Shown here piece by piece: positions 1,808 through 14,865 of a stretch of 64,000 nt of DNA (its first letter is position 1; every line of letters starts with the position of its first letter). The stretch spans positions 1 through 64,000 of the forward strand of contig OZ242008.1 in NCBI GenBank assembly GCA_965204735.1, in the 5' to 3' direction. The position numbers and the translations under genes were made by a program. Source of the DNA: Longimicrobiales bacterium (GTDB taxonomy: Bacteria > Gemmatimonadota > Gemmatimonadetes > Longimicrobiales > Gaopeijiaceae). The notes beneath the pieces were generated by a model, which saw only the letters and a list, made by a program, of their open reading frames with translations, did no database searches and had not been told where the DNA came from.

Positions 1808-3061
1808 TCACGGTCCCAGCGCCCCCAGCGGGACTACTCCCACGCGCCCCTGCGGAACCGCGCCGAAGCCGCTGGGGACGACGACGGCGAGAGCGCCGGG
1901 TTCGCCGTAGCCGCTGCTGGTCCTCATGCGGTCCGCGACTCGTTCCAGGTTGGCCATCCCGTCCTTGACCCGCCGCGCGCCCATCTTCACCTCGAACGCC
2001 GCCCACCTTCCCTCGGCGTCTTCGACGATGGCGTCCACTTCGAGGCCGTCCTTCTCGCGGTAGTGGAACACCTGGGCGTCGGCGGCCTGGGCGTAGACTC
2101 GCAGGTCGCGGACCACCATGGACTCGAACAGAAGACCGAGCGCCTTCAGATCGTTCCGCAGTCGGTTCGGCGTGGCCCGCAGCGCCGCGGCCGCCAGCGA
2201 AGGGTCGGCGAAGTGTCGAACGGGCGTGGTTCGCAGCGTGGTCCGGGAACGCAGATGCGGGGACCATGCCGGTTGATCCTCGATGATCATCAGCCGTTCC
2301 AGTGCCTCCATGTACTCGGCGGCGGTGCTCGCCTTGAAGGACGGCCCTGTCCCGCGCACGTCCCTGGCCAGCGTGGCCAGCGTGGCCGGCGTGGCGACGT
2401 TTCGGGCCAGCGACCGCAGCAGCCTTCCCACCTTGACTGGGTCGCGCCGCTTGTCTTCCAGCCGCTGGACCTCGACGCGCTGCACCTCCGACAGGTAGTC
2501 GCGGTTCGCCCGAAATGCTTGCGCCAAGCTGCGGCTCTGGTTGCCGGGCCAGCCCCCGGCGCACACCAACTCCGCCAGCTCTTGAACCGCGATGTGCGAA
2601 GGCGCCGACCGTTGAGGGCTCCCCGCCAACAGGCCGGCCAGCGATATCTCGCCCGTGGAACGGCCGGTCTCGAAGAGCGACATCGGACGCATCCGCAACC
2701 GCGTCAGTCGTCCGGCGCCGGTGTGGCGGGTGATGTCGTCCGCGGGCACCGCCGAACCGGTGAGGATGAACTGGCCGGGGGCGCCTCGTCTGTCCACGGC
2801 CCGCCGAATGTGGTTCCAGATCGCCGGCTCCGTCTGCCACTCGTCGACTAGGCGCGGCGTTTCGCCTGCAAGGACGGCCGCCGGGTCCAGGTCGACCATG
2901 GCCCGGGCGGCGTCGTCAACGTCCAGGAACACGGCGCTGGCTGCGACCGCTTCGGCCGTCGCGGTCTTCCCGCAAGCCTTGGGACCCTCGACGACGACTG
3001 CGCCGGTGGCGGCAAGCCGATCGGCGAGTTCGGCGTCGACGATTCGGGGAAGGTACTTCAT
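1808..3061 (-). CDS. AAA+ ATPase with DUF4143-like C-terminal domain
   Basis: Walker A GPKACGKT, Walker B LVDEWQ, ILTGS motif, C-terminal FES..RDL...YR....EVDAIVE...AFEVK (PD-(D/E)XK-like). Confidence 0.88.
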   Translation of the reverse strand: MKYLPRIVDAELADRLAATGAVVVEGPKACGKTATAEAVAASAVFLDVDDAARAMVDLDPAAVLAGETPRLVDEWQTEPAIWNHIRRAVDRRGAPGQFILTGSAVPADDITRHTGAGRLTRLRMRPMSLFETGRSTGEISLAGLLAGSPQRSAPSHIAVQELAELVCAGGWPGNQSRSLAQAFRANRDYLSEVQRVEVQRLEDKRRDPVKVGRLLRSLARNVATPATLATLARDVRGTGPSFKASTAAEYMEALERLMIIEDQPAWSPHLRSRTTLRTTPVRHFADPSLAAAALRATPNRLRNDLKALGLLFESMVVRDLRVYAQAADAQVFHYREKDGLEVDAIVEDAEGRWAAFEVKMGARRVKDGMANLERVADRMRTSSGYGEPGALAVVVPSGFGAVPQGRVGVVPLGALGP

Positions 3062-3110
3062 GCCACGGAACTACGCGCTCTTCCTCTTGCTGCGCAAGGG
3101 TTTCAGCAGG

Positions 3111-3202
3111 TCCAGGGGAAGGATCGGCGAAGATTCAGGGGACGATTCGGCGAAGGTTCAGGGGAAGGATCGGCGAAGACCCAGGGGAAGGATCGGCGAG
3201 AC
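3111..3202. repeat. Four tandem 23-bp direct repeats
   Basis: Units at 3111, 3134, 3157, 3180, consensus TTCAGGGGAAGGATCGGCGAAGA; about 50 bp upstream of the AAA/DUF4143 start. Confidence 0.9.
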
Positions 3203-3279
3203 GCCGTGGAGCCCGACGAGCTCCGCTGGCGGCTACGTCCACAGACGGATGTACGAGCCGTCTCGTCGAACCCCACCGC

Positions 3280-6200
3280 TCACAGCGCCGGGCGGCTTCC
3301 CTCGCCGTAGCCGGTCATCTCCAAGTAGCCTTGGCCGACCTGCAGGCCGTCGGGGTCGAACGCGCGGACCATTCCTTCCCAGTAGTGAAGGTTTGCCACG
3401 CGGAGCGACACGTTTTCCTGGGACGGGAAGGCGGCGCGCACGACGATGCGCCCGATCCGGCCCGGCAACGCCACGGTCCACTCGATGGGGTAGGTCGCGC
3501 CGGTGGCTGGGCTGGTCCAGGTCGCGCCGGGAGTCATCGACCATTCTTCGCGCGGCAGGTGACGGGGCGGGTCGGAGGATGTGGCCAGCGTCGCGGCTTG
3601 ATAGTCCGTGCGGCCGTCGGAGCGGCGGAGCTGGAACGCGGTCACGTCGACGCCGTTGTTCATGCGCAAGCTCAGCCAGTCCCAGCCGACCTGCTCGGGC
3701 GCCAGGGGTTCGGAGCTGAACTCGTGGTCCATCCAGCTGGCGCCGGCGACGGCGTAGCGCGCGGCGCCGAGTCGGACGGCCCCGGTCGTGGCCAGGCGCG
3801 GGCGGCTGTAGTACATGCTGGCACGGCCCGGTTCGGCAGACTTGCGGCTGTATCCGTTGGGACCTTGGAACACGACGGGGCGCGTTGGCCGGACGACGAG
3901 CGAGAGGGCCAGCTCCGCCGCATCGTCCGCAGCCGCCAGCGCGAAGCCGTCGTCCTGGAGGTCCAAGCGCCATGGAGAGGAGGTTCCGGGAGGACCGCGA
4001 CTCCATGCGATGGCGACGCGGGAGGCGTTGCCCGATGCGCCGGAGGCCGCGCCGAAGCCGGCCAGGAGAGGGCCGTCCGCGGGGGCGGCCGGGTTGTTGC
4101 TTGGACGGGAGCTGGGCGTCGGATCGGCGGTAGAGCTTGGGTCGGCGGTGGGCGTCGGCTCGCCGGGCGCGAGCAGGCCGGCGCGGTACAGCACCTCGGA
4201 GAAGACGTGCGTGCCTCTGGCGGGGTCGCTGACGGCCATGTGCCCCAGGAGCAACGCCGACGCCGTCCAGCGGGAGGACGGGGCGGGCGCGCTCGTCCGT
4301 GGGGGCGCGTCGCGTTCGGGGCCGGGCGGGCGCAAACCGATCTTGAAGATCGTGAACTGGTAGCCCAGCTCGCGGTCGGACGTGGGGCGGCCCGTCGAGG
4401 CGAGAGCCCGCGCGGACAACACGCCAGTGAAGTACCACCACTCGGTCTTGTAGCCGAAGTGGGGGCCGTGGTCGTCGGGAAACGACCAGGAGTAGTTGGG
4501 GTCTGCCGCCAGCCAGCCATCCGCGACCGCATCCGGCAGGGCAGAAGGCCCGCCCGGGGGATCGGAATCGGACTCCGGCGGGGGCGAGCACGCCGCCAGG
4601 GCCAGGGCAGCCACGGCCGCCGCCACGGCGGACCGCCGCGCGTCCGCGCCCCCTCCGCCGGACGCTCGGAAAGCAGGCCACCAAGACGCCGCAACGGCGG
4701 TCAGCAGCAGGAAGGCGCACTGCTGGGCAAGGCTGAACGCGGGCACGCCGAACTGCACCGTCCAGCCGAAGTAGGCTCGGTTGGTCACGTAGATCAGGAC
4801 TGCGGCCAGTCCGCCGCCGCCCGCCAATCCCAGCACTCCGCCGATGCCGGCCAACCCCGCGCCCTTGCCCAAGTGGAACCGGAAGACTTGGCCGCGGGTG
4901 GCGCCCAGGGCCCGACAGGTGGCGGTGTCCCAAGCTTCTTCCCGAGCCATGACCAGGAGCGACAGGGCCACGCCCGCCGCGGCCACGGCCAGCGCCATCG
5001 CCTGCAGGAGGAGCGTGACCGCGAAGGTCTGGTCGAAGACGCGAAGCGCGTCGGCCCGCAGGGCGCCGTGTGTGCGGACGACGACCGGGTAAGGCGCCGC
5101 CGCCTGCCGAACCGCTTGGACGACGCTTGCCTGCGCGCTGCCCACGCCTGCTCCGTCGCCCGCGCTTGCTCCGTCGCCGGTGCTTGCTCCGTTGCCCGTG
5201 CCAGTCGCCGTCCGCGCCCGTTCGCTGCTCCCGTCGCTGTCCGCACCCGCTCGCCGGTCCCGATCCAGGTAGATCGCCACTCCGTGAGGCGCGCCGGGTC
5301 CGAACCACGCCTCCATCGTGGCCAGGTCCATCGAGACCGAACCTCGGTCCGTGCCGTACTGGTAGTAGACGCCGGCGACCGCCGCCCGAACGGCGCCCGA
5401 GGCCGTCCGCACCAGGATCGAGTCGCCCCGTCCAACCCCCGCTCGGCGCGCCAGTGGCTCGCTGACGGCAACCGCCCCGTCCGCCAGCTCCGCCGCCACC
5501 GTCTCCGAGTCGCCCTCCTTCAGCAGCAGGCGGTCCCTGTATCGCATCCCGGTCGCCCCGGTCGTCCCAGTTGGCCGGGCGTCGATGCCTCGAAGCGCCA
5601 CCGGCAGGTCGTCCGCATAACCGTGGAAGCCCCGCAGCCGGCCCACGGCGGCCACGCCGGGCAGCCGCCGGAGCTGATCCAGCAGGTCGCCGTGCACGCC
5701 CCCCTGGTCGGTCGCGCCCGTCCACGCCGCGCCAGAGACGTACACGTCGGCCTGCATCGTGGCGTCCAGCCAAGCCCGAAAGGTGTCGCGGAAGCTGCCG
5801 ACCATCACGGTGGTCCCCACCAGCATGGCGAAGGCGACCGCAACGCCGGCCACCGCCACGCCCGACGTGTGAAGGCGAACGGGCAGGCCGCCCAGGGCGA
5901 AGCGCCAGCCGAACCCTCGCGAGCGCCCGGCCAGCCGGCACAGCCCCGTCACGAAGGCGGGCGCCGCCAACGCGGTCCACACCATGATCCCCGCCGCCAA
6001 GACGAAGCCCGCGTGGCGCCAGCGGTGGCCTCCGACGGCAAACCACGTCAGCAGAAGCGCCAGCACGGCCCAGCCCGCCCGCCAAAGCGTCTTCGCAACC
6101 GACCGCCAGCGGACGCGCGCGCGCCGGTCGGAGAGCAGGTCGGCCGCCGGGGCAAGGCAGACCTCGGCGGCAGGTCCTGCGGCGCCGGAGATCGTTCCGA

Positions 6201-7344
6201 GCACTCCGCCGGTCAGCGCCAGGAACCACACGCGCGGGGGCACTTCCAGGCTCCGGATCGCCGAGAGCAGGTAGAGGTCGGTCACCGTGCCGCTCACCGA
6301 ATCCAGGTTGGCCAGGGCGACGGCGTACCCCAGAGGCACTCCCAGGGCCGCGCCCGCCACGCCCAGGACGCCCGCTTCCGCCAGCGTTGCGCCCAGGACT
6401 TGGCTTCGAGTCGCCCCCAGGCTTCGGAGCAGGCCGGTCTCGTGGCGCCTTCGGGAAAGGGAGGCGCGCGTCGTGCCGTACACCAGAAAGAGGCCGACGA
6501 AGACCGACGTGAAGGCGAGCGCCGACAGGTTGACGCGAAACGCCGACAGGAGCCGGCGGGCCTCGGCGCGCTGACCCCCGGGCGAAGAAACGAGCGCGCG
6601 GCCGTCCAGTCGAGACGCGAGGCGGCGCCGAACCGTGTCGGCGGGCACGTCGGGGCGGAAGCGAACGTTGACGCGGCTGATCCAGTCGGCTCCGCCCAAG
6701 ACGTTCTGAGCGTCGGCGATGTCCATGATCAGCAGGGGACCTTCGGCCGAAGCGCGGGAGGTCGCGTCCAGCACGCGATCGAGGGCGACGGGCGCCCACG
6801 CCGGCCCGCTGGCCACTTCCACGGTGTCGCCGGCGCCCACGCCGAGGGCGCGGGCAAGGTCGGCGGAAGCGGCGGCGCGGAGCAGGTCGGAGGAGAAAGC
6901 GTGGGCGCGGCCCGGAGTCTGGACGCCGTCCGCCGGCGTGCTTCGGGGGGACTCGCCGGCCGACGACGGATGCAGGGGACCATCGACGGGGGACAGCAGG
7001 TCCACGCCGTACAGGGGAACGCGCCGCCGAAGGTCCTGTTCGCCCGCCCGACGCGCGACGACCGATCCCTCCAGAAGGGGCGAAGCCCAGGCCACGCCCT
7101 CCGTCCCCAAGACGACCGGATAGAGGGACTCGTCCACCTTGCCGCCGTGACCCAGCACCAGGGCGTCCGCGTCTCCCGCCAGCAGCTCCACCGTCGCGTC
7201 GAACGCCGCGACCGCCCCTTCCGTCAACACCTGCACCGTCACCACGGAGCCGGCGCCCAGCGCCACGCCGGCCACGGTCAGAAGGCTCGTCGCGGGCTCC
7301 CGCGCGAACCGACGGCGCAGGACGAAGCGCAGGTACCCGATCAC
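3280..7344 (-). CDS. FtsX/MacB-type ABC permease fused to a C-terminal AttH/CrtC-like lipocalin-fold domain
   Basis: Two permease halves (RRHETGLLRSLGAT, ATCRALGATRGQV) with TM segments; C-terminal part has FPDDHGPH, EWWYFTG, WMDHEFSS, GWDWLSL, YWEG, GYLEMTGY. GTGA overlap with the upstream ATPase. Confidence 0.85.
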   Translation of the reverse strand: MIGYLRFVLRRRFAREPATSLLTVAGVALGAGSVVTVQVLTEGAVAAFDATVELLAGDADALVLGHGGKVDESLYPVVLGTEGVAWASPLLEGSVVARRAGEQDLRRRVPLYGVDLLSPVDGPLHPSSAGESPRSTPADGVQTPGRAHAFSSDLLRAAASADLARALGVGAGDTVEVASGPAWAPVALDRVLDATSRASAEGPLLIMDIADAQNVLGGADWISRVNVRFRPDVPADTVRRRLASRLDGRALVSSPGGQRAEARRLLSAFRVNLSALAFTSVFVGLFLVYGTTRASLSRRRHETGLLRSLGATRSQVLGATLAEAGVLGVAGAALGVPLGYAVALANLDSVSGTVTDLYLLSAIRSLEVPPRVWFLALTGGVLGTISGAAGPAAEVCLAPAADLLSDRRARVRWRSVAKTLWRAGWAVLALLLTWFAVGGHRWRHAGFVLAAGIMVWTALAAPAFVTGLCRLAGRSRGFGWRFALGGLPVRLHTSGVAVAGVAVAFAMLVGTTVMVGSFRDTFRAWLDATMQADVYVSGAAWTGATDQGGVHGDLLDQLRRLPGVAAVGRLRGFHGYADDLPVALRGIDARPTGTTGATGMRYRDRLLLKEGDSETVAAELADGAVAVSEPLARRAGVGRGDSILVRTASGAVRAAVAGVYYQYGTDRGSVSMDLATMEAWFGPGAPHGVAIYLDRDRRAGADSDGSSERARTATGTGNGASTGDGASAGDGAGVGSAQASVVQAVRQAAAPYPVVVRTHGALRADALRVFDQTFAVTLLLQAMALAVAAAGVALSLLVMAREEAWDTATCRALGATRGQVFRFHLGKGAGLAGIGGVLGLAGGGGLAAVLIYVTNRAYFGWTVQFGVPAFSLAQQCAFLLLTAVAASWWPAFRASGGGGADARRSAVAAAVAALALAACSPPPESDSDPPGGPSALPDAVADGWLAADPNYSWSFPDDHGPHFGYKTEWWYFTGVLSARALASTGRPTSDRELGYQFTIFKIGLRPPGPERDAPPRTSAPAPSSRWTASALLLGHMAVSDPARGTHVFSEVLYRAGLLAPGEPTPTADPSSTADPTPSSRPSNNPAAPADGPLLAGFGAASGASGNASRVAIAWSRGPPGTSSPWRLDLQDDGFALAAADDAAELALSLVVRPTRPVVFQGPNGYSRKSAEPGRASMYYSRPRLATTGAVRLGAARYAVAGASWMDHEFSSEPLAPEQVGWDWLSLRMNNGVDVTAFQLRRSDGRTDYQAATLATSSDPPRHLPREEWSMTPGATWTSPATGATYPIEWTVALPGRIGRIVVRAAFPSQENVSLRVANLHYWEGMVRAFDPDGLQVGQGYLEMTGYGEGSRPAL

Positions 7345-8204: not shown

Positions 8205-9635
8205 ATGTCGAAGCTGCCCTGCCCTGCCGCCGGCCGCCGCCCAGCCGCCAACCCCCGCTCGACCGCACCGTCACGACCGCCCTTCGCGTTCCGTCTGCGC
8301 GCTGCCCGCTGGATCGCCGCCTTGGGCGTCGTCGTCGGGACCGCCGTCCAGCCCGCGGCGCCGGCGTCTGCGCTCGGGGCCGAAGTCGTCGGCGTCCAAG
8401 ACCAAGTCCGCCTGGTCGACGCCGCGGTGGCCCAGGTCCAGGACACGATCATCCGTCTTCGCGAGCACATCCATCAGCACCCCGAGCTGGGCAACCGCGA
8501 GTTCAACACGGCGGCGCTGGTGGCCGACCACCTGCGCGCGCTGGGCTTCGACGACGTGCGCACGGGCGTGGCGCACACGGGGGTCGTGGGCCTCTTGCGG
8601 GGCGGGCGGCCCGGTCCGGTGGTGGCGGTGCGCGCCGACATGGACGCGCTTCCGGTCACCGAGGACACGCCGTACCCCTTCAAGTCGACCGTGCGCACCA
8701 CCTACCTGGGACAGGAGGTGGGCGTGAGCCACGCCTGCGGGCACGACATCCACGTTGCGGTGCAGCTGGGCGTGGCGTCGGTGCTGGCGTCGATGCGCGA
8801 CGAGCTGCCGGGCACGGTCAAGTTCATCTTCCAGCCGGCGGAAGAGGGGCCGCCCCCCGGCGAGGACGGGGGCGCGCGGATGATGGTGGCGGAAGGCGTG
8901 CTTGCCGACCCCGCTCCGAGCGCCATCTTCGGATTGCACAGCTTCGCCGAGATGGAGGTGGGCAAGGTGGGTTTCTCGGTGGGACCCGCGCTGGCCGCCG
9001 TGGACCACTTCAAGATCAAGGTCGTGGGCAAGCAGGCGCACGGCGCGGCGCCTCACTTGAGCGTCGATCCGGTGGTCATGGCGTCGCAGGCCGTGGCCGC
9101 ATTCCAGACGATTCGGTCCCGGAACCTGAGCCCCTTGGAGCCCAGCGTGATCACCGTGGGCATCATCCGGGGCGGCACGCGCTTCAACATCATCCCCGAC
9201 GCGGTGGAGATGGAGGGGACGGTGCGCACGTACAACCCGGACGTCCGGGACGCCGTGGAGCGCCGCATGGGCGAGATCCTGGCAGGGATCACCACCGCCG
9301 CCGGCGGCAGCTACGAGCTGGAGTACGACCGGGGCACGCCGGCCACGATCAACGACCCCGTGCTGGCGGCCCAGATGCTTCCCACCCTGCGCCGCGTCGT
9401 CGGCGAGGACAACGTGCTCGACCTGGACCCGACGATGGGCGGCGAGGACTTCGCCTACTTCGCCAACGAAGTCCCCGGGTTCTTCTTCCGGCTGGGCCAA
9501 GTCCTTCCCGGCGGACGGTCGGGCGGCCACCACACCCCCGACTTCCAAGCCGACAACTCGGCCGTCCCCGTCGGCATCCGCGCCATGACGAACCTGCTGC
9601 TCGACTACCTGAAGACAGGACGCCCTGCAATGTAG
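8205..9635 (+). CDS. M20 family amidohydrolase, probably exported
   Basis: HQHPELG, RADMDALP, HACGHD, FQPAEEG, GGEDF, HHTP motifs; hydrophobic signal-like stretch near the N-terminus; start placed at ATG 8205 (uncertain). Confidence 0.92.
   Translation: MSKLPCPAAGRRPAANPRSTAPSRPPFAFRLRAARWIAALGVVVGTAVQPAAPASALGAEVVGVQDQVRLVDAAVAQVQDTIIRLREHIHQHPELGNREFNTAALVADHLRALGFDDVRTGVAHTGVVGLLRGGRPGPVVAVRADMDALPVTEDTPYPFKSTVRTTYLGQEVGVSHACGHDIHVAVQLGVASVLASMRDELPGTVKFIFQPAEEGPPPGEDGGARMMVAEGVLADPAPSAIFGLHSFAEMEVGKVGFSVGPALAAVDHFKIKVVGKQAHGAAPHLSVDPVVMASQAVAAFQTIRSRNLSPLEPSVITVGIIRGGTRFNIIPDAVEMEGTVRTYNPDVRDAVERRMGEILAGITTAAGGSYELEYDRGTPATINDPVLAAQMLPTLRRVVGEDNVLDLDPTMGGEDFAYFANEVPGFFFRLGQVLPGGRSGGHHTPDFQADNSAVPVGIRAMTNLLLDYLKTGRPAM
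9403..9454 (+). repeat. 52-bp direct repeat copy 1 (inside the amidohydrolase gene)
   Basis: 50/52 identical to 12898-12949 by eye. Confidence 0.9.
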
Positions 9636-9839
9636 AAGACGCGCTCCCGCGGGGCGTCCAGTCGATGCAATGTCATGCCAGACAGGGCTTTATCCATGGG
9701 ACAGCATGGTGCCCACGTCTTGGACATCTTATGGGACATTTTGAGTAGGCGAAATCTACTGACGGCCCGGAAGTAGTCGGCGGAAACGGCTTCTGGATCC
9801 GTCCGCCATGTCCCGCCCTTCGACCCCCAAAGCGCAGGG

Positions 9840-12125
9840 TCAGTCTAGGTCCAAGAGGCTCCGCCAGAACGCAGAGACATCCGCCCGGCTTTGGTCTCTG
9901 GTATCCTCGCCCGCGCGGATGATGCTGGGTGGATGGGACAGCCGAAGCAGCTTGTCGCTGGGACCCGACTTCTTCACGGATTGTTCGATGAGCAGACGGT
10001 GGTCTTCCAACAGCCTCCGAACGAACGGCCAGTCGGGGTCGCGTGTGGTCGAGAACCTATCAAGGTCGTCCTCCGACACGTAGAACCGCCGATCCATCTT
10101 GTGGAGAAAGCGCTCCAAAAGGCGGATTCTGCGCAGCTGGGCGTGTGAGTACCGAGTTGGTCTTGGCCCTGCTGCGGTTTCCATGCCCAACTTGCGCAAG
10201 ATCGCGTGCACGTCTCCCGGCGCGAAGTACTCTCCCTTGGGGAAATCTTCGTCGCCAGCCGCGATTCGAATTCCCTGAACCTGCTTGATCAGGCCAATGG
10301 GAGCGCCGTGGAACTCGGTGCGTCCGAGACTCACGACAGGCAGCCGAAGCGTGCAGGCCTCGAAGCTCGGGAATCGCATCCGCGTCTTCGTGAAGTCCAC
10401 CTCGTGGAACTCGCAGCGCAGGAAGTGTGGGCGATCTAGGTCGGCGGGTCCCAGCCGGCCGTGCCGGAAGACGAGATTGCGCAACGCACCGACGAGCCGC
10501 AGCTGGCCGCTGTCGGCGATGAGCCTTGCCACGAGGCGGCCGCCGTTTTCCCTGCCCACGACATCCACAAGTCCCTGTCGGACAGCCGCGCACACCGACT
10601 CGATCGTAACCGCGCGGTCGCTGCCGTTGGTTGCCGCGATCCTCGCGACTTCGTCGGTCACGATGTCGTCAAGAACCGATCGGTTGAGGAAATGCCGAAG
10701 ATCGTCTGGTTCCTGCTCCAAGCACTGGCCGACCTTGCTTGCCAAGAAATAGCTGTAGAACACTTCGTGCTCGAAGCGGAGAGTCTTCCCGCCCGCGTCG
10801 GCTGTAGTAAGAAACGCGTAGCTGGACACGCGACTCCGGATTGCCTTGGCTGCGTCCGGTGGCAATCCATGGCCTTCGGCCAAGAGTGCGGCGAGTTCCT
10901 GCACGGTCTCGAAATCCAGGTTGCGACGCTCCTGCCACCACATTTCCATGGCCAACTCCGCCAAGAACAAGCGGTGCTGATCCCGGCTCATAAGAGGCGC
11001 TCCGGCTTTGCTCAAGAGCTTCTTGTGTTCGCGAACTACAAGGGCGTCCACAAGCCGATCCAACAAAGTCATGTCGGAGAACAGATCAACGCCTTCCATC
11101 AACAGTTCGGCGACCCGCGACACGTAGAACGGTTTTGACAGTACTCTGCGGTTCGACTCGTCCAGGCTGTTTCGCAGCTGCCGGAACTCCGAAAGCACCT
11201 TATTGGGTTTCCGGGAATTGACCGTTTTGGCCGCCTTCTTCACATAGTTGTCACCCTGCGCGTCGCGCCAGGGCTGTACAAGCACGGGGTCCACGCGATA
11301 CCCGAGTCGGCCATCCCATCCAAACCGTGTAGCGTATTCCCGGAAGTTGTTGTAATCGAAGAACGACGAACGTGCGGAGGCCACAACCGCACCTCGCTGC
11401 TCCAGTGTTGCCACGAACGCGGCCAACGAGGAAAACGCCTCGTCGTACCCCCCGCTCCCGAGCAGCTCGTCGAAACCGTCGATCACCGGCACCAAGAGTC
11501 CAGACCGCACGAGTGGCGTGACCGCGCTGTAGGTAAACCTAGCTCGGAGGTCCTGCAATTCTCTAGCCATTGCATCGTCGAGTCGCGACAAAGACCGACC
11601 TTGGACGTCCACATAGAAAAACAGCGACTTCACGCTTCCGTCGATGAATTGTTCAGCTCTCCGCAGGGTCATGTGCCGGAGCACCATCGTCTTGCCCGAT
11701 CCCGCTTCACCTTGGACCAACACCACGCGAGTGGCCAAGTACGGCAAGTCTTCGGTGCTTCGGGATGCAACTACTCCCACGGCATCTTCGTGACGCTGGT
11801 CGCCGTTGTCGCCCCTGTCCTCGTCATTGTCACCGACGCTGGCCAGCGTCTGAACGTAGTCCGGCCCATCGGGAGCTGTTTTGACCACAAACTGGGCAAG
11901 GCGGTCCAGATCGGCCATTTCGGGGCCCGCCAGAAAGTGTTGATAGCTCATCCAAGTGTCGCCGATGCGCACGTCCGGCCAGCTTTCGGCATCCGACTGC
12001 CTCAAAGTCGCTGTGCGGCTGCGACCGTCTCGTTCCCAGATCAACGTGCGGTTGTCCATGAGCACGTCCGATCCGGGGTCGGCGAACCGTCTTATGTCCT
12101 TCTTGATTTCCGCTGTCCGGTCCAT
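9840..12125 (-). CDS. NACHT/STAND NTPase with pentapeptide-repeat-like and C-terminal domains
   Basis: Walker A VLVQGEAGSGKT, Walker B VIDGFDE, ASAR sensor, KPFY, LRFEHEVFYSYFLA (NACHT winged-helix F.H..F..YF.A); pentapeptide-like run LRNLVFRHGRL...CEFHEVDFTKTRM. Confidence 0.85.
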   Translation of the reverse strand: MDRTAEIKKDIRRFADPGSDVLMDNRTLIWERDGRSRTATLRQSDAESWPDVRIGDTWMSYQHFLAGPEMADLDRLAQFVVKTAPDGPDYVQTLASVGDNDEDRGDNGDQRHEDAVGVVASRSTEDLPYLATRVVLVQGEAGSGKTMVLRHMTLRRAEQFIDGSVKSLFFYVDVQGRSLSRLDDAMARELQDLRARFTYSAVTPLVRSGLLVPVIDGFDELLGSGGYDEAFSSLAAFVATLEQRGAVVASARSSFFDYNNFREYATRFGWDGRLGYRVDPVLVQPWRDAQGDNYVKKAAKTVNSRKPNKVLSEFRQLRNSLDESNRRVLSKPFYVSRVAELLMEGVDLFSDMTLLDRLVDALVVREHKKLLSKAGAPLMSRDQHRLFLAELAMEMWWQERRNLDFETVQELAALLAEGHGLPPDAAKAIRSRVSSYAFLTTADAGGKTLRFEHEVFYSYFLASKVGQCLEQEPDDLRHFLNRSVLDDIVTDEVARIAATNGSDRAVTIESVCAAVRQGLVDVVGRENGGRLVARLIADSGQLRLVGALRNLVFRHGRLGPADLDRPHFLRCEFHEVDFTKTRMRFPSFEACTLRLPVVSLGRTEFHGAPIGLIKQVQGIRIAAGDEDFPKGEYFAPGDVHAILRKLGMETAAGPRPTRYSHAQLRRIRLLERFLHKMDRRFYVSEDDLDRFSTTRDPDWPFVRRLLEDHRLLIEQSVKKSGPSDKLLRLSHPPSIIRAGEDTRDQSRADVSAFWRSLLDLD

Positions 12126-12128
12126 TGG

Positions 12129-12833
12129 CTACCAGGCGCAGACTCGTGCCCCCTCGCGTTCCAGCAGGTCCCTGTAGAAGCCCTTCGCGTCCCGCTTCGT
12201 CAAGTATACCAGCTCCACGTCGGAGACCACAAGGGCGAGAAGGGCCGGAACCATGTCGTGGTCGTCGCTGGCCAGCACCACGGTGTCCGCCAGCTTCTCG
12301 TAACGGATCGCCATGGCGTCCGCGGTCAGCAGAGTGTCGACCATCTTCTGCGTGTGCCTGGATGCAACGTCCGACAGGCGCACCGGGCATCCTGTCGCCG
12401 GGCACCGGCCTTTGCACCATGACTCAAAGGAGGCGAGAGTGCATTGGGCAGGCCCGAGGAGGCAGTCGCGGGACGGTTCGACGGTCGTCCTGAGTCGCGT
12501 TGCCCGAGACATCCGGACGGAGTTGCGTATTGGGACGGTCCGGTCCCAGACGGGTGATTCCGCAAGTTCGATCCGAAAGATCTGGCGGCCACGTCGGCGG
12601 GGCATGTCGTCTATTGACCGAGCCACCATGAGCCGCAGGTCGCGTTGTGCAGCCGGAATGTTTCCGTCCCATCCACCGTAGAGTCGTGTCGTCACCTCGC
12701 TGGCGTGAGGGACGGCGGTGAGGACACGGTCCGCAAGTTGCCCAAGCCCGTCTCGGATATCCGCGTAGTTCGGGGGTCGTCCGCTCGGCCAGAGCTCGAG
12801 GTTGAAGAGGTCGGCAAGACAGTAGGCACGCAT
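12129..12833 (-). CDS. NYN domain (PIN-like) ribonuclease with Cys-rich insert
   Basis: From ATG 12833: AYCLADLFN (DxxN), RLYGGW, QKMVDTLL, LASDDHDMVPAL; insert CLLGPAQC...WCKGRCPATGCP. Stop lies 3 nt before the NACHT ATG. Confidence 0.82.
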   Translation of the reverse strand: MRAYCLADLFNLELWPSGRPPNYADIRDGLGQLADRVLTAVPHASEVTTRLYGGWDGNIPAAQRDLRLMVARSIDDMPRRRGRQIFRIELAESPVWDRTVPIRNSVRMSRATRLRTTVEPSRDCLLGPAQCTLASFESWCKGRCPATGCPVRLSDVASRHTQKMVDTLLTADAMAIRYEKLADTVVLASDDHDMVPALLALVVSDVELVYLTKRDAKGFYRDLLEREGARVCAW

Positions 12834-12897
12834 CCGTCCGTCGTGTCGTTCGAGGCTTGGGTGTGGGGAGACAAGGTAGCACCACGCCACAACGGGA

Positions 12898-12949
12898 GCG
12901 AGGACAATGTGCTCGACCCGGACCCGACGATGGGCGGCGAGGACTTCGC
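12898..12949 (+). repeat. 52-bp direct repeat copy 2 (amidohydrolase fragment between the DUF1828-like and NYN genes)
   Basis: GCGAGGACAATGTGCTCGACCCGGACCCGACGATGGGCGGCGAGGACTTCGC matches 9403-9454 with 2 mismatches. Confidence 0.9.
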
Positions 12950-13734
12950 TACGCCGCAACCCCAGCTCTTCTGCCAAGCTTTCGTGCCAAGTCGTCACTT
13001 GAGTCCAGCGACGACACCATCTCGCCGCCGACGTCCGACAGCCGCGCTAGGTCCGACGGAGGAATCTTCTGCTGATCCTCGAACACGATGAGAGACTCGA
13101 AGGCCAGTCCATGCCGATGGAAGTGCGACAGCATAATGGTGGTCAGCCGCGCCTTGTCGCGGTTTGGCACGCCGTACAAGAAGACGGGATCGCCATTTCC
13201 CTCGATCCTGTAGTCGACCGAGTATGCTTCGGCGTGGGGCACCTTGCTCGGCCGGTAGTGGCGCTGCACGCTCCCTTGGTCCACCATTTCGCCGATTAGG
13301 TCCGCCAGGTCGTCATAGAAGGTGGAAGAAACCCGCGATCGCGACAGCGTCGTCAGGTCGAAGATACGAGTCATAGCCTGTCCGTAGCGAAAAATAGCTT
13401 CGGAAAGCTGCTCGGTGGGCGTGTCGAACACGAACGCGCCGCCGTTCCTTGCCAAACCGGTTTCGGCCAAGATGCGCTCCAGCAAGAGTCCGCGACTTCC
13501 TGCCAGGAATGCATCGACATCGTGATCGTAGCTGATGCGCATCAATGTGTGTCCACGATCCGACAGTCGAAGGCCACCCGTCACTTCCGAAACATGGATC
13601 GGGTAGTGATCCCCGTCCGGGAACTCGAAGAAGGTGTCGAGCATGAGCGCGCCGTCCGGTCGGCGCTCGAGACGAACGTCGTGGCAAAGTCCTTTGCACA
13701 ACGACCGTTGCAGGCCGTCGATGTCAAGTGCCAT
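12949..13734 (-). CDS. DUF1828/DUF1829-like protein
   Basis: DTFFEFPDGDHYPIHV...LRLSDRGHTL resembles the DUF1828 TPF..PDGD....SD.G.T pattern; C-terminal YSVDYRI region possibly nuclease-like. Confidence 0.72.
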   Translation of the reverse strand: MALDIDGLQRSLCKGLCHDVRLERRPDGALMLDTFFEFPDGDHYPIHVSEVTGGLRLSDRGHTLMRISYDHDVDAFLAGSRGLLLERILAETGLARNGGAFVFDTPTEQLSEAIFRYGQAMTRIFDLTTLSRSRVSSTFYDDLADLIGEMVDQGSVQRHYRPSKVPHAEAYSVDYRIEGNGDPVFLYGVPNRDKARLTTIMLSHFHRHGLAFESLIVFEDQQKIPPSDLARLSDVGGEMVSSLDSSDDLARKLGRRAGVAA

Positions 13735-13884
13735 CGAACAAGTCCGGCTGTACCTCGTCAGTGTAGTGCAGTGTCGTCACGGCTTGCAAGCGATCGGTGG
13801 AAGGCGTCTATCGACAGACCGGAAGATCGCCTACTGCGAGGCTCAGTGGAAGCCCCAATGGGCGGAACGCCGCGCCGCCCGCCC

Positions 13885-14865
13885 TCACACCCCTGCCAGC
13901 CCGCACGAAGGCGGCAGCTCCGCTCCCTCTCCCTCGACCCCGGCCACCACCTCCAGCCGACGCTGGACCGCGGTCCCGAAGACGCCGCCGCCGTTCCCGA
14001 AGACCGAGGAGATGCGCACCTCTCCCGACGGGTGGAAGTCGCCGCCTCGGGCCCAGTTGGCCCAGTTGCGGTCGAGGGCGGAGACGGACAGCGACGCGCG
14101 CGCGCCGTCGGGCAGGCCGTCCCGAAGAGCGAGGATCACGTCCGCGTCCCCGTCGTCGTTGAAGATGTCCAGCAGGCCGAAGTCGCGAGGGAACGCGATC
14201 TCGCTGTCGTCGCGTCCGATGGAGAGGCCGGTCAGGTTCAGCGTGTCGGGAGCTTCGATCTCGCGTGCCGCGAGAGGCGCCCGCAGGCCAGTGAACTCGG
14301 CTTCGGCCAAGTACGACCACGCGCCGTCGGCCGGGGTCCAGCGGAGACGATGGTTGGCGTCGGGCTCCAGCCGGCAAGCGCCCCCGGAGTAGGCCAGCCC
14401 GCTGAAGTTGAAGGCGCCGGGGATGCGGCTTTCTCCGGTCAGGACCTGCCCGCCGGGCGCCCCAACCTCCACGGAAAGCTCTTCCCCCGGAGCGAACGGC
14501 GTCGTTCCGCTGGGCGCCGTGTAGCAGGTTCCCTCCCCCAGGTACTCCCTTTCGTAGCGAGCCACGACGCACTCGTCCAGATCGGCTTCGACGAGGGCGA
14601 CCACGTTGCCGAACTCGCCCGCAATGCGCACCGACGCGCCGCTCAAAGTTCCCGAAGCGGCTCCATGCACCTTGTGCAGGAGCGTGGGAACGGCCATGCG
14701 CACCCGGGGCGGGTCGCCGGGTCCACCGGGCTCCAGCGTCAGGACCACCTGGACCTCGGCGACGATCAGGTCGTCCGGCCGAAGCAGCTCCATTTCGGTG
14801 AGCTCGCAGCCGGCGACGGCAGCAACCGCGAGGCAACAGGCCATGGCGCCCCGACGCCCCCTCAT
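13885..14865 (-). CDS. Lipoprotein partner of the TonB receptor (DUF4249-like)
   Basis: ATG 14865 overlaps the receptor stop (ATGA); signal peptide with lipobox VAGC; C-terminal SSVFGNGGGVFG. Confidence 0.7.
   Translation of the reverse strand: MRGRRGAMACCLAVAAVAGCELTEMELLRPDDLIVAEVQVVLTLEPGGPGDPPRVRMAVPTLLHKVHGAASGTLSGASVRIAGEFGNVVALVEADLDECVVARYEREYLGEGTCYTAPSGTTPFAPGEELSVEVGAPGGQVLTGESRIPGAFNFSGLAYSGGACRLEPDANHRLRWTPADGAWSYLAEAEFTGLRAPLAAREIEAPDTLNLTGLSIGRDDSEIAFPRDFGLLDIFNDDGDADVILALRDGLPDGARASLSVSALDRNWANWARGGDFHPSGEVRISSVFGNGGGVFGTAVQRRLEVVAGVEGEGAELPPSCGLAGV

Follow-up and report, generated by a model that had tools for sequence, protein, structure and literature searches.

A NYN nuclease gene and a NACHT NTPase gene form a conserved and horizontally mobile pair that recurs across bacterial phyla, keeps its catalytic motifs intact and varies in presence between strains. 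We describe this cassette in a 64,000-nt stretch of Longimicrobiales DNA (hereafter the window) and favour, at a probability of about 0.6, its interpretation as an NLR-like system of conflict or phage defence, in which an RNase encoded in trans is the effector and a short pentapeptide beta-helix the sensor. NLR-like STAND proteins embody an immune logic common to bacteria, plants and animals, and most bacterial examples studied to date carry the effector fused within a single polypeptide. The cassette would be a naturally split counterpart, making the contact between sensor and effector accessible to study as an interface between two proteins. It would also offer NYN as a nuclease type and the pentapeptide helix as a sensor type for immunity; we know of no proven role for NYN in bacterial immunity.

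The locus and its two proteins

The NYN/LabA-type PIN-like nuclease, the predicted effector, is encoded at 12129-12833 on the reverse strand (234 aa), and the NACHT-clade STAND NTPase at 9840-12125 on the same strand (761 aa). The frame of the former is open already from 12998, giving a 289-aa ORF; we set the gene to 12129-12833 because the alignment with every 234-aa homologue starts at the ATG at 12833. As the first-pass annotation had read, the NYN stop (TAG, 12131-12129) lies 3 nt before the NACHT ATG at 12125, and this short spacer (CCA, 12126-12128, reverse strand) implies operonic, probably translational, coupling. GC content is 0.59-0.64 across 9501-13500 and 0.70-0.74 in the flanks, so that the AT-rich island proposed earlier is real; its description as lying among housekeeping genes does not hold on the upstream side, where the pair has no direct housekeeping neighbour because a DUF1828 gene (12949-13734, reverse strand) shares the island as its third gene. 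We rejected DUF1828 as a cassette member, since it is missing from a cassette of the same genus and the largest neighbour family covers 7 of 80 loci. A sigma-70 consensus scan of 9500-14000 returned no promoter-like site, this consensus being possibly not of the host's type, and the three terminator-like sites in the same interval were no excess over shuffled controls.

The acidic motifs by which the nuclease had been recognized are all found: ADLFN (the DxxN motif; D8, N11), QKMVD (162-166) and SDDHD (189-193). The Pfam NYN model (PF01936) scores 26.9 bits against a cut-off of 24.2, with a match that covers only the second half of the protein, towards the C-terminus (residues 200-261 in the 289-aa ORF, or about 145-206 in the 234-aa form). 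D8, N11, Q162, K163, D166, D172, S189, D191 and D193 are invariant in NYN homologues. Conservation across the two NYN-bearing clades of the NACHT tree (A and B, below) was read column by column from a MAFFT alignment: D8, N11, D166, D172, D191 and D193 are retained in 27-29 of 29 clade A and 27-28 of 28 clade B sequences, and K163 and the acidic residues (DxxN; KxxD; SDDxD) are invariant or nearly so in all 57 NYN partners. The five cysteines noted earlier as an insert (C124, C131, C140, C144 and C149, within 124-149) exist in the window protein; four of them, C124, C131, C144 and C149, are invariant in 28/28 aligned homologues, and the insert, at about residues 110-157, is a clade-specific and probably zinc-binding 4-Cys element.

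The AlphaFold model of the nuclease (pLDDT 84.7) aligns best with NYN proteins in VIA-align: the MARF1 NYN domain (5yaa_A; Z 12.9, rmsd 3.0, 140 of 150 residues aligned, 13% identity) and VPA0982 (2qip_A; Z 11.3, rmsd 3.7, 140 residues aligned), followed by T4 RNase H (Z 9.7), ExoIX (Z 9.3) and T5 exonuclease (Z 9.1). Foldseek placed 2qip tenth at a probability of 0.98 and gave no match at E<=1e-3; a NYN profile found none among PDB sequences at E<=1. The protein is predicted to be a metal-dependent nuclease and, by family, most likely an RNase. The family comprises 1053 cluster representatives at E<=1e-3, and almost all of the best 150 of these measure 200-300 aa.

The NACHT protein divides into an N-terminal alpha/beta domain (residues 1-97), an acidic linker (98-114), the NBD (115-285), HD1/WHD (286-452), HD2 (453-539), a pentapeptide beta-helix (540 to about 635) and, in the model, a C-terminal winged-helix-like domain (636-761). 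Pfam NACHT (PF05729) matches residues 133-224 with 34.6 bits against a cut-off of 26.7. Walker A is GEAGSGKT (139-146) and the Walker B signature DGFDE (216-220), with G144, K145 and D216-E220 invariant in 28/28 sequences. The model (pLDDT 84.5, pTM 0.71) has the NBD-HD1-WHD-HD2 arrangement of solved NLRs, and Foldseek retrieves NLRC4 (4kxf_F, 2.9e-13), NOD2 (5irm_C, 1.9e-11) and NLRP3 (8ej4_A, 8.1e-11). No N-terminal effector had been recognized previously, and residues 1-130 indeed match no Pfam, NCBIfam or PADLOC domain; the 97-aa domain is conserved among homologues. In the ESM Atlas, residues 1-100 reached a best score of 0.81, which is noise level, and residues 610-761 gave no usable match.

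The pentapeptide-like repeats also stand. On the single sequence, Pfam Pentapeptide_4 stays below its cut-off (E 0.066, 13.7 bits against 38), and we therefore consider the region short and diverged. A family profile matches MfpA (6zt4_A) at 1.4e-10 over profile positions 540-593, and other pentapeptide proteins, McbG-like (5.3e-9) and Qnr (7e-8), within 540-605, and in the AlphaFold model regular 3-residue strands over 540-606 build a beta-helix. Sequences of this region share a mean pairwise identity of 0.24, versus 0.49 for the NBD.

Conservation, distribution and mobility of the pair

Gene-pair synteny, proposed earlier as a check, is well preserved: at 61 of the 80 genome loci encoding NACHT relatives, the ORF immediately upstream, on the same strand, belongs to the NYN family, a pairing far beyond chance. 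These loci come from at least 10 phyla, among them Gemmatimonadota, Acidobacteriota, Pseudomonadota, Actinomycetota, Spirochaetota and Bacteroidota. Carriers in culture include Methylorubrum rhodinum DSM 2163 (L054) and Luteimonas aquatica RIB1-20 (L063). In 55 of 59 separate pairs the two genes are an estimated -60 to +30 nt apart, and both share one frame at the two other NYN-bearing loci. The first of these, L042, is an intact fusion, with NYN at aa 204-427 and a complete NACHT at aa 446-1199 of one open frame; in the second, L049, the NACHT part is broken downstream. No third gene is conserved, the largest neighbour family being that found at 7 loci, and from its neighbourhoods the cassette appears to be a self-contained two-gene unit. 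In the size range near the NACHT protein's own length, the best 120 of 278 homologue matches were covered. Long fused forms were sought among homologues of 1333-3805 aa, which yielded two weak WD40 giants only (8e-8 and 1e-6); this search says little, because fusions of about 1000 aa belong to another size range.

A NACHT tree of 76 rows, from which five partial rows were left out, separates three clades. Clade A holds 29 members with a Cys-insert NYN, one fused and three without NYN; clade B holds 28 with an insert-less NYN and one without; the 14 members of clade C have none. NYN type thus tracks NACHT clade, a pattern indicative of co-diversification, and the Cys insert appears as a feature of one clade and not of the whole system. 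The tree conflicts with taxonomy. Upstream of 19 NYN-less NACHT genes, a relaxed HMM search found nothing better than E 0.006. At six Solirubrobacterales loci, upstream conservation corresponds to a divergently transcribed Schlafen/AlbA_2 gene.

Several observations show that the cassette moves. Nucleotide homology to a second cassette of the same genus is limited to positions 9849-12896 of the window (78.7% identity over 3055 nt), and this second copy sits at a different genomic place. The shared segment includes 12834-12896 (reverse strand), a putative leader or promoter region that moves with the two genes. A NYN match occurs in 5 of 41 related genomes, the window's own included. In one metagenome (run X3), a contig of depth 56 joins 9669 to 12961 and omits 3291 nt (9670-12960, no strand), with 39 other letters between the two ends and 55 letters on its shorter side; cassette pieces reach a depth of 2 in this run, against about 50 for the flanks. 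The dominant strain in that metagenome is therefore without the cassette, and contigs carrying it were recovered in runs X5 and X6. At the upstream edge, a repeat search identified a diverged 65-nt copy (12885-12949, forward strand, 88% identity) of positions 9390-9454, which lie inside the adjacent amidohydrolase gene. Three relatives (G001-G003) have the in-gene copy only, and the extra fragment is a scar of insertion or recombination. One of them, G003, carries in the same slot a HEC-04-like ATPase (3.4e-21) and a Schlafen/AlbA_2 protein.

No tRNA gene that could serve as integration target was found within the window, and searches for mobile carriers gave no relative in PLSDB plasmids at 1e-20 or in GenBank phages at 1e-10. 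The 41 pattern matches in IMG/VR viral contigs contained no confirmed relative. Among PHROGs, NACHT is unmatched and NYN matches only phrog_5783 (1.1e-4), a family whose function is unannotated. An expected enrichment in defence islands was borne out in part. By Pfam, the nearest neighbour is of restriction, Schlafen, DruA or HipA type at 10 of 61 loci and a transposase or integrase at 7 of 61; at E<=1e-10, PADLOC models match 9 of 116 nearest-neighbour proteins, two of which, a sigma factor and an ABC ATPase, seem generic. Some defence neighbours are thus present, and the association is modest. Copies often lie between housekeeping genes, such as hyuA/hyuB (L056), E2/E3 (L068) and trpC/trpE (L078).

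Predicted complex and proposed mechanism

Complex prediction, suggested earlier as a check, places the two proteins in contact: ipSAE, which is the model's own confidence, was 0.63, 0.66 and 0.64 over three runs, against 0.00 for the best of three controls. Agreement between the runs is at least 86% of contacts, with a partner pLDDT of 80 or more. In calibration, the mark that this pair passes was reached by 116 of the 157 solved complexes and by 2 of the 215 mismatched pairs, counts that hold roughly here because our analysis used its own alignments. NYN is predicted to dock at the NBD-WHD-HD2 junction of NACHT, away from the N-terminal domain. Both NYN-bearing clades keep interface residues E394, D404 and T/S407; other residues stand there in clade C, which lacks NYN. 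Clade B matches the clade A consensus at 0.31 of the interface versus 0.40 of the rest of the NACHT module, and the interface positions thus show no extra conservation across clades. Both binding and interface position are to be taken as model predictions.

The trigger, substrate, activation step and defence role described next are inferences. The two genes would form one conflict system, most likely anti-phage with an abortive-infection type of action. NACHT would be the switch, and the pentapeptide beta-helix, its least conserved folded part, would sense an invader cue together with the C-terminal winged-helix domain. The NYN nuclease would be held on the NACHT module. In STAND proteins, NBD, WHD and HD2 surfaces separate when exchange of ADP for ATP opens the protein. 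Since the predicted docking site lies on these separating surfaces, sensing might either free NYN or cluster copies of it on an oligomer. Released or clustered, the nuclease would then cut cellular RNA, invader RNA or both, and growth would stop.

A more detailed version of this scheme is tempting, and we hold it as a tentative, rather doubtful whole. NYN would act as a latch spanning the closed NACHT junction, to be ejected or re-arrayed by the ADP-to-ATP opening, a release-on-opening logic unlike the induced proximity of fused NLR effectors. The pentapeptide helix would mimic DNA and bait a DNA-binding protein of the invader, and the Schlafen/AlbA_2 proteins of clade C would be alternative RNase partners in the same position.

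Among competing explanations, the one that survives best, and that we still judge unlikely, is an addiction module of toxin-antitoxin type, where NYN is constitutively toxic, NACHT is its stoichiometric inhibitor and the cassette persists through post-segregational killing with no sensing. A small, tightly coupled two-gene cassette, inserted alone amid housekeeping genes and strain-variable, would behave in this way, and the stable contact predicted between the two proteins could be inhibitory. However, a 761-aa switch ATPase with invariant Walker A and B motifs and variable sensor-like repeats exceeds the needs of an antitoxin, and the L042 fusion would be self-toxic unless regulated. The gene order and sizes usual in type II toxin-antitoxin pairs also differ from those of NYN and NACHT. 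This explanation overlaps with the anti-phage one, because abortive-infection systems often act like toxin-antitoxin pairs.

Mobility bears directly on a second explanation, a housekeeping or stress function in which NACHT is a MalT/AfsR-type regulator of an RNA-processing NYN or of gene expression, with no role in conflict. Patchy distribution (5 of 41 related genomes, including that of the window), a same-genus copy elsewhere in the genome, presence and absence inside one population, GC below that of the host, a tree discordant with taxonomy and a slot filled by defence-type genes in G003 all make it very unlikely, despite the winged-helix-like fold at the NACHT model's C-terminus and the many loci amid metabolic genes. 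STAND transcription factors reportedly exist, according to a study of AfsR, and would speak for it. So would LabA-type NYN proteins, which also have non-defence, regulatory roles, such as in circadian regulation (available portion of PMC5499597).

It is just as hard to credit a defence system in which NYN is not the killer and acts instead on DNA, in FEN/5'-nuclease fashion, or as an adaptor or guarded decoy activating NACHT when disturbed by phage: DNA-flap 5'-nucleases do rank next after NYN proteins structurally, predicted docking spares the N-terminal domain and falls on the regulatory NBD-WHD-HD2 junction, and the conserved 97-aa domain lacks an assigned role, but the top structural matches are NYN RNases, strictly kept catalytic residues would be superfluous in a decoy, and the cassette has no other conserved effector-like domain or gene.

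Comparison with known systems

The pair had been considered unnamed, and it remains so in PADLOC-DB v2.0.0, NCBIfam and the literature, in which we found no named NYN+NACHT system. In PADLOC-DB v2.0.0, a library that presumably includes bNACHT models, NYN is unmatched, NACHT has only weak matches to mad8 (1e-4) and RecD (0.042) and none to an Avs model, and family members from other clades (L042, L054 and L066) have none at 1e-3. NCBIfam returned nothing meaningful for either protein. As the cassette is invisible to PADLOC-DB v2.0.0, counts of defence systems in soil, marine and sponge-associated bacteria may be too low.

Bacterial NACHT proteins have been shown to be anti-phage (Kibby et al., 10.1101/2022.07.19.500537), and the window protein resembles them, as far as the accessible text of that study describes them, in its D[GAS]hDE signature (here DGFDE), its central switch, joined to a C-terminal region that varies more, and its C-terminal repeats, pentapeptide repeats being among the types listed. 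The NLRC4/NOD2-like fold of our model is a further likeness. The proteins described in that text are single-gene, with an effector usually fused N-terminally, whereas the sole effector candidate here is a separate gene and the N-terminal 97-aa domain falls outside known families. The window NACHT is thus no tripartite effector-NTPase-sensor fusion, and no bNACHT or Avs model of PADLOC-DB v2.0.0 recognizes it.

With Avs/AVAST systems the cassette would share a STAND NTPase sensor that links a recognized phage cue to an effector, such as a nuclease. Accessory genes accompany some AVAST types. In Avs proteins, unlike the NYN+NACHT cassette, the effector is fused at the N-terminus and the sensor is TPR-like or of another kind. 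The main text of a 2026 Avs survey (10.64898/2026.01.04.697583), in its available part, contains no mention of NYN, PIN, pentapeptide or operon. The NLR-like CARD-protease-gasdermin systems, as partially documented, also have an ATPase that signals to a separately encoded effector, but do so through CARD-like adaptors and proteolysis that acts on a pore former; the cassette has neither adaptor nor protease domains, and the partner, a nuclease, is predicted to contact the NACHT module itself.

On the nuclease side, a bacterial parallel is HEC-09 (10.1101/2024.01.29.577857), a MARF1-like NYN protein with conserved catalytic aspartates and a defence context. In the available sections of this source, HEC-09 is encoded by one gene, has an HTH-like region at its N-terminus and lacks a STAND partner. 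It is embedded in Hma systems, is the one NYN-domain defence candidate that we know to have a published test, and failed to protect against the phages used, which counts against the anti-phage interpretation. Eukaryotic NYN RNases such as MARF1 (5yaa, Z 12.9) share the fold and acidic active site; they are not orthologous (13% identity) and differ in partner domains and regulation. Cnidarian immune proteins fuse NYN to TRADD-N, so that, in the portion of PMC8195603 available, NYN also serves as an output domain of immune-type proteins in eukaryotes.

Locus layout and the two proteins

The cassette consists of two genes on the minus strand of the window, an NYN gene (12129-12833) and an ORF encoding a NACHT protein of 761 aa (9840-12125), with only three bases between the stop codon of the first and the start codon of the second. 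The NYN reading frame is open to 12998, and the ATG at 12833 was taken as its start because the 234-aa homologues cover the protein from there. Both genes belong to a three-gene stretch of low GC content (0.59-0.64, versus 0.70-0.74 in the flanks) that begins with a DUF1828 ORF (12949-13734, minus strand); the latter shares the low-GC island but lies outside the NYN-NACHT cassette. The DUF1828 product matches its Pfam family (1.9e-14), the PADLOC candidate PDC-M24B (8.6e-11) and the phage family phrog_5059 (3.1e-29). At the upstream edge of the cassette, 12885-12949 is a copied fragment of the 3' region of the amidohydrolase gene, forming with 9390-9454 a direct repeat of 65 nt (88% identity); the in-gene copy is the sole one in three related genomes (G001-G003), and the repeat looks like a scar of cassette arrival.

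The NYN protein matches its Pfam model at 26.9 bits (cut-off 24.2). Across 28 aligned NYN partners, no variation occurs at D8, N11, Q162, K163, D166, D172, S189, D191 or D193, or at cysteines 124, 131, 144 and 149. The AlphaFold model has a pLDDT of 84.7, falling to about 60 in the Cys insert. Foldseek returned no match to this model at E<=1e-3; the top match of a full VIA scan was the NYN domain of MARF1 (5yaa_A; Z 12.9, rmsd 3.0, 140 aligned), followed by the LabA-like VPA0982 (Z 11.3) and then FEN-type 5'-nucleases. The NYN profile retrieved 1053 cluster representatives at E<=1e-3, and almost all of the top 150 are separate proteins 200-300 aa long.

The NACHT protein reaches 34.6 bits (cut-off 26.7), residues 1-130 having no Pfam match, and the motifs GEAGSGKT and DGFDE are kept without exception across the family. 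Its model (pLDDT 84.5, pTM 0.71) comprises an alpha/beta domain (residues 1-97), an acidic linker of low confidence, the NBD, HD1/WHD and HD2, a beta-helix from residue 540 to about 635, and a winged-helix-like C-terminal end. Foldseek matched this model to NLRC4 (2.9e-13), NOD2 and NLRP3, and the family profile matched MfpA (1.4e-10) among solved pentapeptide proteins. The NBD has the highest mean pairwise identity (0.49) and the pentapeptide region the lowest among folded parts (0.24), a sequence pattern that would be expected of a sensor. The same genome holds a distant second NACHT-family match (locus L082, G000:C1:1594075-1595622, plus strand; 24% identity, E 2.8e-23), which also carries pentapeptide repeats (Pentapeptide_3, 7.2e-6).

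Conservation of the gene pair

Scanning a single genome from each species yielded 148 confirmed NACHT relatives, and the best 80 of these 148 loci were kept. In 61 of the 80, the NACHT gene is immediately preceded, in the same orientation, by an NYN-family ORF, which bears out the pairing proposed in the first-pass annotation. Cultured carriers include Methylorubrum rhodinum DSM 2163 (L054), Luteimonas aquatica RIB1-20 (L063) and Embleya sp. (L064). The estimated gap between the two genes is -60 to +30 nt in 55 of 59 separate pairs; elsewhere, NYN and NACHT form one open frame (L042) or share a frame in which NACHT is broken further on (L049). Among the neighbours of these loci, no further gene was found to be conserved beside the pair. 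The NYN-NACHT cassette is real, widespread and self-contained.

A maximum-likelihood tree of 76 NACHT rows, from which five partial rows were dropped, resolves three clades. Clade A, of mixed taxa, contains 29 members whose NYN carries the Cys insert, none whose NYN lacks it, one fusion and three members with no NYN. Clade B, also mixed, has 28 NYN partners, all lacking the insert, no fusion and a single member with no NYN. In clade C, composed of Actinomycetota with one Planctomycetia and one unplaced member, all 14 are devoid of NYN, fused or separate. The four cysteines are present in 29/29 clade-A partners and deleted in 28/28 clade-B partners, and the NYN catalytic residues are retained in both clades alike.

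Several loci show further features. In six clade C loci (L066, L067, L072, L075, L077 and L079; ~4100-5970), a Schlafen AlbA_2-HATPase_c_4(-HTH) gene adjoins the NYN-less Solirubrobacterales NACHT, in L067 directly upstream on the same strand, and may be an alternative NACHT partner. Other NYN-less NACHT genes stand next to a JAB+ThiF (E1-E2-like) gene (L053, L055) or to HNH and GmrSD genes (L080). In L045, the strand opposite to the pair carries a second NYN-family ORF (13136-13912, minus strand; E 4.2e-26), some 5 kb downstream. Finally, L073 and L074, whose contigs are attributed to one Saccharibacteria and one Myxococcales MAG, have identical NACHT sequences; the probable cause is double binning or mis-binning of a single contig, not a recent transfer.

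Predicted NYN-NACHT complex

Binding between the NACHT protein and the nuclease proposed to act in trans gained model-level support from structure prediction, run on both full-length chains with alignments that drew on 26 shared loci and the window. The three runs scored ipSAE 0.63, 0.66 and 0.64 and had at least 86% of contacts in common, with a partner pLDDT of at least 80; no control out of three scored above 0.00. The mark used was attained by 116 of the 157 solved complexes in the tool's calibration, as opposed to 2 of its 215 mismatched pairs, figures that are rough here, the alignments being custom-built. We know of no like complex, so the prediction is unlikely to reproduce a memorised structure; the complex is still a model.

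Predicted contacts on the NACHT side fall in the NBD (184-188, 224-236, 264), the WHD (394-414, 447) and HD2 (474, 478, 518-521), with none in the N-terminal domain; those on NYN are at 2, 46, 68-87, 95-101 and 175-181. Clades A and B, which have NYN, both retain E394, D404 and T/S407, positions at which the NYN-less clade differs. Overall, interface positions are no better conserved between clades than others (0.31 versus 0.40). The modelled interface is best described as plausible and clade-co-evolving, short of proven.

Mobility and a probable role in defence

The NYN query matched 5 of 41 related genomes, the window's own counted, and a close copy (82%) occurs in only one of them, from the same genus. 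That copy has window 9849-12896 and nothing else in common with our locus, and lies in a different genomic place. In G003, another member of the genus, the slot between the amidohydrolase and lipoprotein genes is filled differently: it contains a truncated DUF1828 gene and, replacing NYN-NACHT (L094, G003:C1:1342000-1351000, at 2585-6418), a HEC-04/PtuA-like ATPase (HEC-04 match 3.4e-21) and a Schlafen/AlbA_2-HATPase_c_4-HTH (wHTH) protein. Because other genes occupy it there, this slot is a variable, defence-type hotspot.

Strains vary as well. In sequencing run X3, depth is about 50 over the flanks and 2 over cassette pieces, and in one contig (depth 56) 9669 is linked to 12961 through 39 other letters, the shorter side of the joint spanning 55 letters. 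As run contigs were placed at 90% likeness, this is good, but imperfect, evidence. Contigs of runs X5 and X6 carry the cassette, and the runs matching the window include sponge and marine metagenomes. Strains also differ at the edge of the island: in the cassette-bearing X5 contig, 10 other letters stand in place of 144 nt between the DUF1828 and lipoprotein genes (13750-13895). At other loci the cassette splits normally adjacent genes, namely hydantoinase A/B (L056), 2-oxoacid dehydrogenase E2/E3 (L068) and trpC/trpE (L078), which suggests precise insertion of a small cassette without its own recombinase.

The pair had not been recognised as a named system. In PADLOC-DB v2.0.0, NYN has no match and NACHT matches only mad8, at 1e-4. 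NCBIfam gave no meaningful match for either protein, and full-text literature searches turned up no paper describing the pair. The comparison covered parts of Kibby et al. (10.1101/2022.07.19.500537), a 2026 STAND survey (10.64898/2026.01.04.697583), Kaur et al. 2021 (PMC8195603), Payne et al. 2024 (10.1101/2024.01.29.577857) and Matelska et al. 2017 (PMC5499597). The terms NYN, PIN, pentapeptide and operon are absent from the main text of the survey as searched; the NACHT clade, minus its partner, may be catalogued in its supplements or in Table S1 or a figure of Kibby et al.

We favour, with a probability of about 0.6, a conflict system of NLR-like type whose nuclease is encoded in trans. 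This reading rests on homology to NACHT proteins with proven anti-phage activity, as described in the part consulted of Kibby et al., and on the nuclease partner, the variable sensor, mobility and strain variability, and the hotspot context. Other observations count against defence, or are neutral: many cassette copies are wedged between metabolic genes, no relative of the pair was found in the viral contigs, plasmids and phages searched, and the genes beside the pairs are of mixed kinds. Pfam annotation of the 116 proteins that flank the 61 pairs most closely shows a restriction-, Schlafen-, DruA- or HipA-type neighbour at 10 loci and a transposase or integrase at 7. Nine of these 116 proteins match PADLOC at E<=1e-10, two of them (one sigma factor, one ABC ATPase) being probably generic.
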